Assembly (NCBI RefSeq): GCF_988243305.1
Contig: NZ_OZ547136.1
Length of the DNA stretch: 64,000 nt
Reading direction: 5' to 3' (one strand)
Shown here: positions 17,103-61,234 of the stretch, one piece after another
Layout: every line of letters starts with the position of its first letter
Position numbering within the stretch: position 1 is the stretch's first letter
Notes under the pieces: model-generated
The model's database searches: none
Seen by the model: only the letters and a program-made list of their open reading frames with translations
Told to the model about the DNA's origin: nothing
Program-made: the position numbers and the translations under genes

Positions 17103-17324
17103 ATGGCAAAGATCCGATATCTGCAGGGCACGCATGATGCCCGGGCCGGGGATATCCGTGATGTGGCACAGCCGTGTGCGGAGGTGCTGGTTCGCCTGGG
17201 AAAGGCGGAGTACATCACGGTGCGACGTCCGGCAGGTCAGAAAAAGAAACGTGATGCGGAGCATGGCGAATGTGGAACCTTTTACGGCGAACCCGAAAAA
17301 ACCAGAAATCAGGACGTGACGTAA
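17103..17324 (+). CDS. Small hypothetical protein between the capsid and portal genes
   Basis: 73-aa ORF; overlaps the portal start by 55 nt; uncertain. Confidence 0.3.
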   Translation: MAKIRYLQGTHDARAGDIRDVAQPCAEVLVRLGKAEYITVRRPAGQKKKRDAEHGECGTFYGEPEKTRNQDVT

Positions 17325-33085: not shown

Positions 33086-36000
33086 ATGACAGTAAAAATT
33101 TCTGGCGTGCTTAAAGATGGCACAGGAAAACCAGTACAGAACTGCACCATTGTGCTGAAGGCCAGACGAACCAGCAGCACGGTGGTGGTGAACACAGTTG
33201 CCTCAGAAAACCCGGATGAAGCCGGGCGTTATACAATGGACGTCGAGTATGGTCAGTACAGCGTCAGTCTGTTGGTGGAGGGATTCCCGCCGTCACACGC
33301 CGGGACCATCACCGTGTATGAAGACTCACAACCGGGTACGCTGAATGATTTTCTCGGTGCCATGACGGAGGATGATGCCCGTCCGGAGGCACTGCGCCGT
33401 TTTGAAGTGATGGTGGAAGAGGTGGCGCGTAACGCGTCCGCAGTGGCACAGAACACGGCAGCCGCGAAGAAGTCAGCCGGCGATGCCAGCACATCAGCCC
33501 GTGAGGCGGCAACCCATGCGACTGATGCTGCAGGCTCAGCACGTGCAGCCAGCACGTCAGCCGGACAGGCCGCGTCGTCGGCTCAGTCAGCGTCTTCCAG
33601 CGCAGGAACGGCATCAATAAAGGCCACTGAAGCCTCAAAAAGTGCTGCTGCTGCAGAGTCATCAAAAAGCGCGGCAGCTACCAGCGCCAGTGCCGCGAAA
33701 ACGTCAGAAACGAATGCCGCAGCATCACAAAAATCGGCAGCCACTTCTGCATCCACAGCGACCACGAAGGCGTCAGAAGCTGCCACCTCGGCACGGGGTG
33801 CGGCGGCCTCAAAAGAGGCAGCGAAATCTTCAGAAACGAATGCATCCTCGAGCGCCAGCAGCGCAGCTTCCTCGGCAACGGCGACAGCAAATTCTGCGAA
33901 GGCGGCAAAAACGTCCGAGACGAACGCTAAGTCTTCTGAGACGGCAGCGGAACAGAGCGCCTCAGCTGCGGCAGGTTCAAAAACAGCGGCTGCATTATCT
34001 GCCAGTGCCGCGTCAACAAGTGCCGGGCAGGCCTCAGCCAGTGCCACCGCTGCCGGAAAGTCGGCAGAAAGTGCCGCCTCGTCTGCTTCAACAGCCACAA
34101 CGAAGGCTGGCGAAGCCACTGAACAGGCCAGTGCAGCAGCGAGGTCTGCTTCCGCAGCGAAGACATCCGAGACGAACGCGAAAGCGTCGGAAACCAGCGC
34201 AGAATCCTCAAAAACGGCTGCCGCATCGTCCGCTAGTTCGGCGGCGTCATCGGCATCATCGGCGTCAGCTTCAAAAGATGAGGCGACCAGACAGGCGTCA
34301 GCAGCGAAGGGCAGCGCCACGACAGCATCCACGAAGGCGACAGAGGCAACTGGCAGTGCGACGGCGGCAGCACAGAGCAAAAGTACGGCGGAATCCGCGG
34401 CAACGCGCGCCGAGACAGCGGCAAAACGGGCAGAGGATATTGCATCCGCCGTGGCGCTTGAGGATGCAAGTACGACGAAAAAGGGGATAGTACAGCTCAG
34501 CAGTGCAACCAACAGCACATCTGAAACGCTTGCCGCGACACCGAAGGCAGTTAAAGCAGCGAATGACAATGCGAATGGCAGGGTACCATCTAACCGAAAA
34601 GTTAACGGGAAAGCACTGACTGCGGATATAACATTAACACCGAAAGATATTGGCACTTTAAATTCAGTAACGATCTCTTTCTCTGGCGGGGCAGGGTGGT
34701 TCAAACTGGCAACGGTTACCATGCCACAAGCGAGTTCCATCGTTTACATCGCATTGATTGGTGGCGCTGGTTACAACGTCGGCTCCCCACAGCAGGCAGG
34801 CATTTCAGAACTGGTTCTACGAGCAGGCAATGGAAAGCCCAAAGGGATTACCGGAGCTTTGTGGAAGCGTACAGCCGTCGGATTAACGAATTTCGCCTGG
34901 ATCAACACATCCGGCGATACATATGATATTTACGTTGAGATTGGCAATTATGCGACGAGTGTAAATATCCATTGGGATTGTACTACAAATGCGTCAGTTT
35001 CTATTTATACCTCGCCAACATATTCAGCGAGTAAGCCTTCCAGCGTTACCGGTGGTGTTGTTTATACGATGTATAGCTCACATCAGAAACCTACACCATC
35101 AGATATTGGAGCGCTGCCAACGACTGGAGGGACTATTTCAGGTCCGTTGTCTGTTACTGATGGGATCACCGGGGCACTGAAGGGGAACGCCGATACCGCG
35201 ACGAAACTTGCGGCAGTCCCAAAAATTAACGGTGTTAAGTTTGATGGCTCGGCGGATATTAACCTCACGCCGGAAAATATTGGTGCATTTGCCCGACGTT
35301 CGACGGGGGCTTATGCGGATTCGGATGGAGCCGTTCCCTGGAATGCCGAATCAGGCGCTTACAATGTCACCCGCTCTGGCGACAGCTATATTCTGGTTAA
35401 CTTCTATACCGGAGTCGGAAGTTGCCGGACCCTGCAGATGAAGGCGCATTACAGAAATCGTGGTCTGTTCTACCGTTCTTCAAGAGACGGTTATGGTTTT
35501 GAGGAAGACTGGGCAGAAGTTTATACCTCGAAAAATCTTCCACCAGAAAGCTACCCAGTCGGCGCACCAATCCCGTGGCCATCAGATACCGTTCCGTCTG
35601 GTTATGCCCTGATGCAGGGGCAGACTTTTGACAAATCTGCTTACCCGAAACTTGCAGCTGCTTATCCGTCAGGCGTGATCCCTGATATGCGTGGCTGGAC
35701 GATTAAGGGCAAACCTGCCAGTGGTCGAGCCGTATTATCTCAGGAACAGGACGGCATTAAATCGCACACCCACAGCGCCAGTGCATCCAGTACGGATTTG
35801 GGGACGAAAACCACGTCGTCGTTTGATTATGGTACTAAGTCTTCAAATGCCACTGGTGACCATAACCACAGCCGAGGCACTATGGAAATTACCGGTACTC
35901 TCGGTTACTTCAGAAGTGATAGCGGTAATTTCTATACAGCAAGTGGAGCATTTACACTGGGTGGCTCTGCGCCAGCCCATGGATTTACGGGCTCTCAATT

Positions 36001-36214
36001 TACTTATGGTGTTCCTGTAAACTTTAACGCTTCCAGAACCTGGTCTGGTGCCACAAGCACTACAGGTAACCATGCGCACTCTGTTCCAATTGGTGCTCAT
36101 GCGCACTCCGTTGCGATTGGTTCACATGGACACACCATCACCGTTAACGCTGCTGGTAACGCGGAAAACACCGTCAAAAACATCGCATTTAACTATATTG
36201 TGAGGCTTGCATAA
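33086..36214 (+). CDS. stf: Side tail fibre protein (Stf-like)
   Basis: 1042 aa; Ala/Ser-rich repeat region with repeated (K)T/SSETNA motif; C-terminal HxH repeats ([23 protein letters not shown]). Confidence 0.85.
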
Positions 36215-36798
36215 TGGCATTCAGAATGAGTGAACAAGCACGGACCATAAAAATTTATAATCTGCTGGCCGGAACTAATGAATTTATTGGTGAAGGTGAC
36301 GCATATATTCCGCCTCATACAGGTCTGCCAGCAAACAGTACCGATATTGCACCACCAGATATTCCTGCTGGCTTTGTGGCTGTTTTCAACAGTGATGAGT
36401 CATCGTGGCATCTCTTTGAAGACCATCGGGGTAAAACGGTTTATGACGTAGCGTCAGGGGACGAGTTATTTATTTCTGAACTCGGTCCGTTACCGGAAAA
36501 TGTTACCTGGTTATCGCCGGAAGGGGAGTTTCAGAAGTGGAACGGCACAGCCTGGGTGAAGGATACGGAAGCAGAAAAACTGTTCCGGATCCGGGAGGCG
36601 GAAGAAACAAAAAACAACCTGATGCAGGTAGCCAGTGAGCATATTGCGCCGCTTCAGGATGCTGCAGATCTGGAAATTGCAACGGAGGAAGAAACCTCAT
36701 TGCTGGAAGCCTGGAAAAAGTATCGGGTATTGCTGAACCGTGTTGATACATCAACAGCACCTGATATTGAGTGGCCTGCAAATCCTGTCAGGGAGTAA
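36214..36798 (+). CDS. tfa: Tail fibre assembly protein (Tfa)
   Basis: 194 aa; TAATG overlap with stf; Tfa-like sequence. Confidence 0.8.
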
Positions 36799-36852: not shown

Positions 36853-37521
36853 CTATTTTTTCCCTGAAGCGGAAAACATTACTACAGTACCTTGAACCTT
36901 GGTTTTAACATTCTCGAAATGCTCTGAGAGTATATGTGTTAAGCCTTCTTCGGAATCTTTTGTGTTTGAAAAGATGCCTTTCTGATTGTAAATGCGCATC
37001 AGTTTTTGACCGAAGCTATTGTGCACAACTCCATCGCCAAGAATTGTGGCTCCGTATAGAGTTCCATCGTCAGTTAAGGCCTGCGCCGCATTGCGTATTA
37101 CACAGCTTTTTGTAGATATATTTCCAGGCAGGCAGTGAAGAAGGTAAAACATGGAAATGGAATCAAATTGACCATGTAACGCCGCGGGATAAGGTTCAAA
37201 AACATCATGGCTAATTTTATGTTTAATTTTTGATTCCCCAGCCCTTGTAGATGCCGCGTTCAGGCTAGCTTCGTTCAAATCCATTAAAGATATCAGACTA
37301 CTCTCAGGTACGTGAGTAAGGTAAAACCCAGTTCCAACACCAATATCCAGATGGTTGTTACCTACATGTTCCAGAAAGTGTGGAAGAAGGTGTTCCTTTG
37401 TAGGACATCCCCATGCAAGCCGATTTGATACTCCCAAAACCCACCAGTCATAAAGCTTTAGGGTAAGTGGTGTGTAAATTTTAGCCCCATCATCTGTGTT
37501 TTTTTTCATTGATTTCACCAT
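36853..37521 (-). CDS. Class I SAM-dependent methyltransferase (moron)
   Basis: Motif I LDIGVGTGFY, acidic post-I residue, motif FDSISMFYLLHCLP; AT-rich, opposite strand to the tail genes. Confidence 0.7.
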   Translation of the reverse strand: MVKSMKKNTDDGAKIYTPLTLKLYDWWVLGVSNRLAWGCPTKEHLLPHFLEHVGNNHLDIGVGTGFYLTHVPESSLISLMDLNEASLNAASTRAGESKIKHKISHDVFEPYPAALHGQFDSISMFYLLHCLPGNISTKSCVIRNAAQALTDDGTLYGATILGDGVVHNSFGQKLMRIYNQKGIFSNTKDSEEGLTHILSEHFENVKTKVQGTVVMFSASGKK

Positions 37522-37577: not shown

Positions 37578-37847
37578 ATGCTGCCGCAGCATAGCGATAT
37601 TGAAATAGCCTGGTATGCTTCGATACAGCAGGAGCCGAATGGCTGGAAGACCGTCACCACACAGTTCTACATCCAGGAATTCAGTGAGTATATTGCGCCA
37701 CTGCAGGATGCTGTAGATCTGGAAATCGCAACGGAGGAAGAAAGATCGTTGCTGGAGGCATGGAATAAATATCGGGTATTGTTGAATCGTGTTGATACAT
37801 CAACTGCACCTGATATTGAGTGGCCTGCAAATCCTGTCAGGGAGTAA
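37578..37847 (+). pseudogene. Tfa C-terminal fragment (duplicated 3' end of tfa)
   Basis: Last about 50 codons and 3' UTR (37692-37896) are about 90% identical to tfa 36643-36847; N-terminus unrelated. Confidence 0.6.
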
Positions 37848-38443
37848 TCATTGGGATTATGCCGCAGACACGTCGTATGCAGGAACGTGCTGCGGTTAGT
37901 TTGTGAGCTTTCGATAGTGGTTGTTATTTTTGCCCTTATTTGTTCCGGAGGCCATGGTTCAATGGTCCGTCTGCCCCCTGTGGTGATGTCAGCAAAATCA
38001 GCCACTGCGCGAACCACAATAGCCCGGGAAGATGCTGAAGATCACCAGGTAAAGCTGTCAGCGCAGAAACTGGAAGAACTGCTCGCATCAATGGTTAAGG
38101 ATGAGGTTGATCGCAATGATGGGATTTATTGACGTCAGCGAGAGCAGAAGGAAGAACTGAATAACCTGAATGATTTACGCTCAATCAGAGCGATGATGAT
38201 TGGCAGTAATTAGCGGTCAATTTCGGTTTTTTTGGCTGTGCGCTCCCCGCCCAGCATTGCGCGTCAATTAGCCCCAAAAAAACGAAAAAGTTACAATCAA
38301 GTAAAAAATTCCTTCTGCAAAACTAAAAAAGATTTCAATAAAATCAGACAGTTAAAAACATAAAAAAAAGTACAAAAAAACATCTCAAAGTCTTGTTTTT
38401 TGCTTCAAATACAATTGGTTATTGTGTTTTTTGAAACCTACCA

Positions 38444-38560
38444 GTGTGGTACATGGATATCGATACCACCGCCAATTATAAGCTGGGCGGTGCACAGCAA
38501 CACGATAGCGTACGCCTCGATCCGTGGGTGTTTATGTTCTCAGCAGGATATCGTTTTTAA
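38444..38560 (+). other. ompW: 3'-terminal fragment of ompW at the prophage right junction (attR region)
   Basis: In-frame translation VWYMDIDTTANYKLGGAQQHDSVRLDPWVFMFSAGYRF* matches the OmpW C-terminus as I recall it; an in-frame stop lies at 38432, so the upstream part of the gene is absent here. Confidence 0.7.
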
Positions 38561-38574
38561 TTCCGCACAAAAAC

Positions 38575-38595
38575 GACCCCGTAATATACGGGGTC
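38575..38595. terminator. Bidirectional terminator hairpin between ompW and yciE
   Basis: GACCCCG-TAATATA-CGGGGTC between convergent genes. Confidence 0.6.
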
Positions 38596-38619
38596 AATAA
38601 GGACATGGTATAAAGGGTA

Positions 38620-39126
38620 TTATTTCTTCGCTTCTACGCCATCAGTTTCAGAGCGAATTAAAAATTTCTCAGTTGTTTGCGGAATATGCTGAATCAGCCA
38701 GTCGGCCATTTCTTTTTCCTCATTTAAAATCGCTTCGATGGTTGGAATTGAAGCTGTATCACCGGCATTTTTTGCTGCTGCTAATAGTGAGGTGTAACAG
38801 GCGATTTCAAATTGCTCGAAGACATATCCGCTAATAGAGCCTTTGACTATTTCATCAGAAGGGAATATACCACCGATTGACTGCCCAAGCGCAGCCATTT
38901 TACTCATGGAATCTTTAATGACTGAACGTGAAATGTCATTACGATCAAGAATAGTTTCCAGTTGAACAATCTGGTTTTTGGTTTCACTAAGATGTTGTTC
39001 AATACGAGCGCGTAGTTCAGGATAATTATCTATACGACTAGCCATGGATTCAAGCATAGATTCGGCTTGCTTTTCCATTGCGTGGGCGTCACGTAACCAG
39101 TCATGATAATGTTCAATACGATTCAT
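38620..39126 (-). CDS. yciE: DUF892 ferritin-like stress protein YciE
   Basis: 168 aa; conserved position in the yciE-yciF-yciG-trpA order; which paralogue is which is inferred from length and order. Confidence 0.8.
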   Translation of the reverse strand: MNRIEHYHDWLRDAHAMEKQAESMLESMASRIDNYPELRARIEQHLSETKNQIVQLETILDRNDISRSVIKDSMSKMAALGQSIGGIFPSDEIVKGSISGYVFEQFEIACYTSLLAAAKNAGDTASIPTIEAILNEEKEMADWLIQHIPQTTEKFLIRSETDGVEAKK

Positions 39127-43690: not shown

Positions 43691-45286
43691 TTACCCTCGT
43701 GCCGCCAGTGCGGTGACTCTGTCGTAAGCAGAACCACTGCGCAGTACCTCAAGAACGGTTTGCGCATTGGCTTGCAGATCTTCATGGCCATGCAGGCGCA
43801 TTAACATGGCGACGTTCGCCGCGACGGCTGCTTCATGGGCGGCGTCGCCTTTACCTTGTAACAAGCGTGTTAAAATGTCACGGTTTTCTTCCGGTGTTCC
43901 GCCTGCCAGTTGCTCCTGGTGGTAGGGTGTCAGGCCAAAATCTTCAGCGGTCAATTGATAGCTCTTAATTTCGCCGTCATGCAGTTCGGCAACGATTGTC
44001 GGCGCGTGTAATGAAACTTCATCCATCCCGCCGCTGTGCACCACTGCCGCGCGTTGATACCCCAGCACGCGCAAGGTTTCGGCAATCGGTAGCACCAGTT
44101 CCGGACTATAAACACCAATTAACGCCAGCGGAGGATGCGCCGGGTTAATCAGTGGCCCCAGCACGTTGAACAGGGTGCGGGTTTTCAGTTGCTGGCGAAC
44201 CGGCATCGCGTGGCGAAATCCGGTGTGATATTTCGGCGCAAAGAGGAAACAGACGCCTAACTCATCCAGCGCCTGGCGCGATTTATCGGCGTTCATATCA
44301 AGATTAATACCGAATGCCGCCAGCAGATCCGACGAACCGGATTTACTGGAGACACTACGGTTGCCGTGTTTCGCCACTTTCAGCCCACAGGCCGCGGCGA
44401 CAAACGCACTGGCGGTAGAAATATTGATGCTGTTACTGCCGTCACCGCCAGTACCGACGATATCAGCAAACAGATAATCCGGGCGCGGGAACGGCGCGGC
44501 GTTTTCCAGTAGCGCGGTTGCTGCTCCGGCGATCTCGTTCGGGTGCTCGCCGCGAATTTTCATGCTCACCAGCGCCGCCGCCAGTTGTTCCGGTTTCAGT
44601 TCGCCACGTACCACCGCTGAAAACAGCTGGTGGCTTTCTTGTTGGCTAAGCGTCTGCGCCTGATACAGTTTTTCCAGAATCGGTTGCAGCGTGTTAGTCG
44701 GTTCCAGTTTCTGCTGCGCCCAGGCCAATGTTTGTTCCAGCAGGCGAGCGCCCTGGGTAGTAAGAATGGATTCCGGATGGAACTGGAATCCACAAACGCG
44801 ATCTGCATCGTGACGCACCGCCATCACCATGCCATTAAAATGGGCGTTGATGGTTAAACCGGCCGGAATGTTACTGCCAACCAGCGAGTGATAACGCGCC
44901 ACTGGCAGCGGGTTTGTTAATCCGGCAAACATCGCCTGACCGTCATGTTCAATACTCGACGCTTTACCGTGAAGAATTTCGCCCGCCTGACCGACATACC
45001 CCCCATAAGCTTCGACAATCGCCTGATGACCGAGGCAAATGCCAATAATTGGCAGCTTGCCGCGCAGGCGGGTGAGGAGTTCTGGCATACAACCGGCTTC
45101 GCTTGGCACACCGGGGCCAGGAGAAAGCATCAGCACCGGATTGCTCATTGTCGCCAGGCGTTCAATTAAGGTCTGCGCCGGAATATGGTTGCGGTAAATC
45201 ACCACGTTATGACCATTGCTGCGCAACTGATCTGCCAGGTTGTAAGTAAAAGAGTCGATATTATCGAGCAGCAGAATGTCAGCCAT
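43691..45286 (-). CDS. trpD: Bifunctional anthranilate synthase component II / anthranilate phosphoribosyltransferase
   Basis: 531 aa; glutamine amidotransferase domain followed by phosphoribosyltransferase domain. Confidence 0.97.
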
Positions 45287-46869: not shown

Positions 46870-46896
46870 AAAAAAAAGCCCGCTCATCAGGCGGGC
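46870..46896 (-). terminator. trp attenuator (3:4 terminator hairpin plus U-run)
   Basis: On the minus strand: AGCCCGCCTGATGAGCGGGCTTTTTTTT between trpL and trpE. Confidence 0.95.
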
Positions 46897-46939
46897 TGGG
46901 TATCTGATTGCTTTACGCATGGTGAATACACTGCCCGTT

Positions 46940-46984
46940 TCAGGAAGTGCGCCACCAACCTTTCAGTACGAAAATTGCTTTCAT
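46940..46984 (-). CDS. trpL: trp operon leader peptide
   Basis: Minus-strand ORF encodes [14 protein letters not shown] with tandem Trp codons. Confidence 0.97.
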
Positions 46985-60862: not shown

Positions 60863-61234
60863 TTATCATCATTCTTATTACCCATTTTTAATGAATTACA
60901 GGGCTTTTAATACACCGCAGCAATAACAGGTTGAGTTATCTCAACACAAAGTAATAACCGTTAAAGGTGTAGCCTATGATCAACACAAATATGAAATATT
61001 GGTCCTGGATGGGTGCATTTTCTCTGTCGATGCTCTTCTGGGCCGAACTCCTCTGGATCATTACTCACTGATCCCTGACCCCGCTGCGGCGGGGTTTTCA
61101 TTTGCTTTGCCACAAGGTTTCTCCTCTTTTATCAATTTGGGTTGTTATCAAATCGTTACGCGATGTTTGTGTTATCTTTAATATTCACCCTGAAGAGAAT
61201 CAGGGCTTCGCAACCCTGTCATTAAGGAGGAGCT

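Follow-up and report, generated by a model that had tools for sequence, protein, structure and literature searches.

The window, by which we mean the whole 64,000-nucleotide stretch of DNA that was analysed, opens within a lambdoid prophage and passes at position 38442 into chromosomal DNA of the ompW-yciE region. The prophage portion encodes, in addition to hok/sok, DUF968, RusA and Q functions, tRNAs, lysis genes and terminase, an HK97-type head, a lambda-like tail, J, Lom, a tail fibre, a tail-fibre-assembly protein (tfa) and a cargo methyltransferase. By analogy with related prophages, the early region, int/xis and attL would lie to the left of the window. The features at and around the right end are as follows.

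1–38441, plus strand: window portion of a lambdoid prophage, colinear with the ompW prophage of strain 600029 (97–99%)
36214–36798: full tfa gene, in the cargo region beside attR
36853–37521, on the strand opposite to tfa: class I SAM-dependent methyltransferase, cargo region
37578–37847: second, truncated tfa copy, almost identical in its C-terminal part, cargo region
~37944–38213: DUF4376 pseudogene with an internal stop, cargo region
38140–38311, plus strand: lineage-specific phage DNA made up of a spacer and the end of a pseudogene of DUF4376/tail-fibre-assembly type, as RefSeq annotates the near-identical 20AR0300 locus
38312–38441, plus strand: conserved, A-tract-rich P arm of attP, ~130 bp, common to O157:H7, ETEC, O145 and P-EibA prophages
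38315–38323, plus strand: CTGCAAAAC, candidate arm-type site for Int, unchanged across the six junctions aligned
38342–38354, plus strand: AATCAGACAGTTA, IHF-like site with one mismatch to WATCAANNNNTTR
38432–38434, plus strand: TGA that stops the ompW frame in the phage DNA directly left of the junction
38442–38469, plus strand: 28-bp core (O) CAGTGTGGTACATGGATATCGATACCAC, identical in attB, attP, attL and attR, ompW codons 174–183
38442–38562, plus strand: 121-bp imperfect att duplication of PPompW, here in its native (B′) version
38444–38560, plus strand: orphaned native ompW 3′ fragment, codons 175–212 and TAA
38574–38596, no strand assigned: G+C-rich hairpin CGACCCCGTAATATACGGGGTCA between the convergent ompW and yciE, on the chromosomal B′ side
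38620–39126, minus strand: yciE, the nearest chromosomal gene on the right of the prophage that is intact

Several elements of the prophage portion are worth recording in their own right. The sok antitoxin of the hok/sok module is found at 396–571, tRNA-Met(cat) and tRNA-Arg(tct) lie at 5100–5352 downstream of a DNA methyltransferase gene, and the sRNA STnc100 (6049–6238) is located upstream of an IraM-like gene (6264–6599, minus strand). The portal-region ORF at 17270–19855 is one uninterrupted 861-aa frame, and the corresponding gene carries a frameshift annotation in both strain 600029 and LC567822.1; it contains an internal direct repeat with an offset of ~162 bp (18796–19227 versus 18958–19389, 91% identity against the relative by local BLAST). 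The tail-fibre protein (33086–36214) has 1,042 aa, with Ala/Ser/Thr-rich low-complexity repeats over residues ~110–470, and positions 34567–35561 form the main late-region divergence from strain 600029 (78% or unaligned), consistent with exchange of a host-range module. Next to it, the segment 36214–38213 looks like a moron inserted through duplication of the tfa end. Rfam IS009 (RF02111) scored 224 bits at 36557–36755, inside the tfa coding sequence, and this ‘RNA family’ may be merely the conserved 3′ part of tfa. No RNA family of Rfam matched within 38140–38600.

We compared window positions 38100–38700 by megablast with 5,426 complete E. coli genomes, 5,079 of which were matched. For genomes with an intact ompW among the matches listed, the match begins only at query base 343, which is window position 38442, and positions 38442–38700 match the ompW-yciE region of thousands of E. 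coli genomes in which it is uninterrupted (E 4e-130). A pairwise alignment with ATCC 8739, the kind of check that the earlier note had proposed for finding the exact breakpoint and the core repeat, displayed random-level similarity left of 38442 and 100% identity from there to the aligned end on the yciE side; it places the breakpoint at 38442. The right boundary of the prophage in the window is 38441/38442. Hundreds of genomes, and several phage lineages that have diverged from one another, have this breakpoint at exactly the same base. The A-rich segment immediately to the left (38240–38441), which had been described from the letters as A-tract-rich and phage-like, is unrelated to ompW and 99% identical to the P arm of the phage 204576 attP. 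Translation in the ompW frame across the junction reads ...CVF*NLPVWYMDIDTT...AGYRF* (asterisks are stops), confirming that the frame is broken upstream of the remnant by the TGA at 38432–38434.

To the right of the boundary, native ompW keeps 38 complete codons (V175–F212, 38444–38557) and its TAA at 38558–38560, while of the Ser174 codon just the final two bases are left at the junction. The remnant is without promoter or start context, and in relatives it carries the RefSeq label of an incomplete ‘OmpW family outer membrane protein’ pseudogene; the attR structure explains the truncated ‘OmpW family’ pseudogene that annotation pipelines call beside yciE. The earlier note had placed about 36 ompW codons with a terminator here. 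The position of the fragment was correct and the hairpin exists, but the count is 38, and the hairpin is shared by ompW and yciE: since the T-run of the hairpin at 38574–38596 lies on the minus strand, that is, the yciE side, it is best described as a terminator common to both genes. Beyond yciE the gene order is the usual one of this E. coli region (ompW-yciEFG-trp): yciF and yciG are followed by trpA-trpE and the trp leader. Beside yciG, strain 600029 carries an IS1 that is not present there in the window. The minus-strand trp operon leader and the sRNA STnc180 were matched at 46870–46963 and 60903–61105, as expected for chromosomal DNA.

Since the window contains the core only once and has neither the 5′ part of ompW nor an integrase, and since no window-identical genome was found among the 5,426 complete E. 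coli genomes (best matches 97–99%), relatives were used as stand-ins: strain 600029 (NZ_CM128582.1), strain 20AR0300 and Escherichia phage 204576 (CP025907.1). We conducted a four-way comparison in which the window supplied attR, strain 600029 attL, ATCC 8739 attB and phage 204576 attP. From its left flank to the end of the core, the phage attP agrees with attR, and beyond the core it agrees with attL; in attB, the left side is that of attL and the right side that of attR, as present in the window. The 28-bp core is bounded by mismatches at both ends in this comparison, and on these alignments the point of strand exchange must lie somewhere inside it. When attP was rebuilt from the P arm of the window and the P′ arm of strain 600029, it was found as a contiguous sequence in CP025907.1 (99.3% over 426 bp). 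This attP sits internal to the record, flanked on one side by the tail-end region of the window and on the other by the same integrase (99.5% amino-acid identity). The corresponding empty attB, with an intact ompW, is present in ATCC 8739, K-12, BL21 and roughly 3,400 other genomes. The window is thus attP-like on the left and attB-like on the right, base for base, in agreement with the original proposal of a prophage attR inside the 3′ end of ompW. Taken together, these results make it almost certain that positions 38312–38562 are the attR (P-O-B′) of a lambda-like temperate phage integrated site-specifically in the 3′ part of ompW.

Alignment of six ompW-site junctions revealed similarity only from ~38312 rightwards, with several invariant blocks inside; positions 38140–38311 are not conserved among the ompW-integrating phages in this alignment. 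The P arm has a single copy of the motif CTGCAAAAC, located at −127 in the window and at −128 in the phage 204576 attP, and the P′ arm of phage 204576 has three copies in tandem, at +125, +136 and +149 from the start of the core; no others were found near these P and P′ arm copies. The 64-kb window has just two exact copies of a 10-mer, TCTGCAAAAC, that is present three times in the attL of strain 600029. We tentatively read CTGCAAAAC as the arm-type Int site. The distance from the core to the P′ repeats (~+125) exceeds that in lambda, a point that weighs against our reading. The IHF consensus is WATCAANNNNTTR, and the O157, O145 and P-EibA versions of the IHF-like site read AATCAATCAGTTA, a perfect match to it; positions 38342–38354 are a candidate IHF site, judged by motif. 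Right behind the stop of the surrogate ompW, the P′ arm carries three tandem CTCTGCAAAAC repeats, both in the attL of strain 600029 (local positions 7030–7090 of that locus) and in the attP of phage 204576 (3310–3345). Behind these repeats, between the restored ompW and the convergent int, lies a T-run hairpin, CTGGTCATCAAATGACCAGTTTTTT, which would terminate the restored ompW. The integrase beside the attL of the relatives has Pfam Arm-DNA-bind_1 and Phage_integrase domains, the latter being the tyrosine-recombinase catalytic domain, and can be aligned with lambda Int over its whole length (PDB 5j0n, E 8.5e-56), and the P arm of the window would suit an enzyme of this kind; NCBIfam offered no useful family for the integrase or the excisionase.

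The prophage of strain 600029 is colinear with window positions 376–39980 at 97–99% identity. Its left end has the order yciC, full-length 639-bp ompW, integrase, excisionase, exonuclease, and at its right end it agrees with the window. Both ends recur in strain 20AR0300, with the 639-bp ompW, the integrase and the excisionase at attL, around a prophage that has different head genes. In strain 600029, attL lies ~13 kb left of the point corresponding to window position 1. By analogy, the attL of the window prophage would also be located ~13 kb to the left and have the structure seen in the relatives. The earlier suggestion that attL and the integrase are outside the window agrees with this position and with the window itself, in which no second core, ompW 5′ part or integrase was found.

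The attL of the relatives also bore out the suspicion that the phage supplies a replacement 3′ end. It contains a full-length ompW encoding a 212-aa OmpW, WP_000737224.1 (the native protein is WP_000737226.1), and the last 29 codons of this gene, 184–212, are phage-derived; they contain TAKYKSGVTTVKDSVRLDPWVFMFSAGYRF. Over the published 121-bp att the attL copy and the native sequence are identical at 95 of 121 positions. Seventeen codons differ between the phage and native 3′ ends, with 7 amino-acid changes and 10 synonymous differences. All seven changes fall in residues 185–194 (N185K, L188S, G190V, A191T, Q192T, Q193V and H194K), and the synonymous differences are found on both sides of this stretch as well as within it. 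This pattern shows that selection has kept the phage copy able to encode a functional C-terminus of the barrel.

OmpW is an eight-stranded barrel with both termini periplasmic, and residues 185–194 are probably the tip of its last beta-hairpin, extracellular loop 4. A single-sequence AlphaFold2 model of the attL variant (mean pLDDT 28) was unusable for placing the substituted residues, and so this assignment is derived from the eight-stranded topology alone. We consider it doubtful that the phage-supplied end is more than a neutral patch and that, in about a quarter of E. coli strains, lysogeny exchanges an OmpW surface loop. If it did, the swap could alter recognition by OmpW-dependent phages, colicins or antibodies, and would amount to lysogenic conversion through replacement of a gene end. 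The clustering of the amino-acid changes in the phage-supplied C-terminus is the only point here that may deserve a small follow-up.

In the mechanism that we propose, a lambda-Int-type tyrosine recombinase with an arm-binding domain would exchange strands inside the 28-bp core common to attP and the chromosome. Because the phage attP carries, to the right of the core, a diverged copy of the last 29 ompW codons, integration would rebuild a full-length ompW at attL and cut off the final 38 native codons, which would stay at attR, preceded by phage DNA with an in-frame stop.

Three other readings were weighed against site-specific integration. An ompW that is simply contiguous upstream of 38440, with no insertion at all, which the earlier note had named as the refuting case, can be dismissed: nothing resembling ompW lies left of 38442, where the ATCC 8739 alignment has no similarity, the frame is stopped at 38432 and the 5′ part of the gene is absent from the window. 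The window on its own, with just a truncated gene beside foreign DNA and degraded tfa/DUF4376 pseudogenes immediately to the left, might also suggest the remnant of a non-specific event, such as a deletion, an IS-mediated rearrangement or an illegitimate insertion of phage DNA. This we regard as extremely improbable, because the breakpoint is the same to the base in hundreds of genomes and several divergent phage lineages, and the att has already been published (PMC8112680). The four-way att comparison refutes it as well, in that the junction recombines on paper into the attP of a real phage record.

The third reading accepts a genuine attR and places the irregularity at the left end: recombination or inversion with another lambdoid prophage (for example that at ydfJ), a tandem or nested prophage, or a deletion of int and attL that would have locked in a cryptic element. 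In its favour, inversions between ompW and ydfJ prophages and prophage-in-prophage structures at ompW have been reported by Nakamura et al. (PMC8112680), the ompW-site prophages are mosaic (the head genes of 20AR0300 and 600029 differ while att and int are the same), and the left 13 kb are outside the window. We nevertheless consider it unlikely, given that the 38 kb inside the window are colinear with the single complete prophage of strain 600029 and that the 21-bp attB-in-PP_1 site, which marks nested prophages, and a second integrase are both absent from the window. The attR of a conventionally integrated ompW prophage remains our preferred reading.

To estimate how often the site is split, a 188-bp probe across the empty ompW site was searched against the 5,426 complete E. 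coli genomes. The places matched exceed the records by 1,289, and in 489 records the best place has 80–90% identity, which corresponds to attL read through into the diverged part. From these two numbers, the results indicate that the ompW site is split in about a quarter of the complete E. coli genomes. The site is among the most heavily used lambdoid integration sites of E. coli, and in STEC/EPEC it is a hub for effector-carrying and Stx-carrying nested prophages.

The junction is already known as a common, published lambdoid integration site. The PPompW site was described by Nakamura et al. (2021, PLoS Pathog 17:e1009073, PMC8112680; GenBank LC567818–LC567841), who defined the 121-bp attL/R by PCR and sequencing of attP on excised circles and reported PPompW for 44% of 767 complete genomes, a sample with a bias to STEC/EPEC. 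Window positions 38442–38562 are identical to the LC567822.1 repeat_region 43883–44003 at 119 of 121 bases. The window prophage resembles PPompW in its site, its 121-bp att (119/121), its conserved P arm and, in close relatives, an IntE/XisE-type module, as well as in its lambda-like prophage order with a tail-fibre/cargo end at attR. The cargo by attR is different: the window has a methyltransferase between full and truncated tfa copies, whereas the PPompW of O145:H28 carries the T3SS effectors espO, nleG and espM. A further difference is that the window has no copy of the 21-bp attB-in-PP_1 site. P-EibA of ECOR-9 (AF151091.1) is, judged from its sequence, also integrated at ompW, as its right end likewise consists of the conserved blocks of the P arm, the core and the 3′ end of native ompW; its P arm is only ~78% identical and its cargo is eibA/eaaA. 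It had been considered as a second attP and was rejected as such, the alignment revealing another attR with native ompW sequence.

Similar to lambda, the relatives encode an Int with an arm-binding domain, and the attP is long and A/T-rich, with candidate arm motifs repeated on both arms and a putative IHF-like site; the P-O-B′ architecture and the position of the late/tail end of the prophage at attR are also shared. Unlike in lambda, the target is part of a coding sequence and not intergenic, the identical core has 28 bp compared with 15 bp in lambda, the core and the P′ repeats are separated by ~93 bp of surrogate coding sequence, and the candidate arm motif CTGCAAAAC is unrelated to that of lambda. 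Phages that bring a surrogate gene 3′ end include e14 and phage 21, both in icd, and many integrators at tRNA genes. As in these phages, attP copies the 3′ end of the target, so that attL regains an entire gene and attR keeps a pseudo-3′ end. Unlike in them, the target is ompW, and the surrogate end alters seven amino acids that cluster in OmpW residues 185–194.
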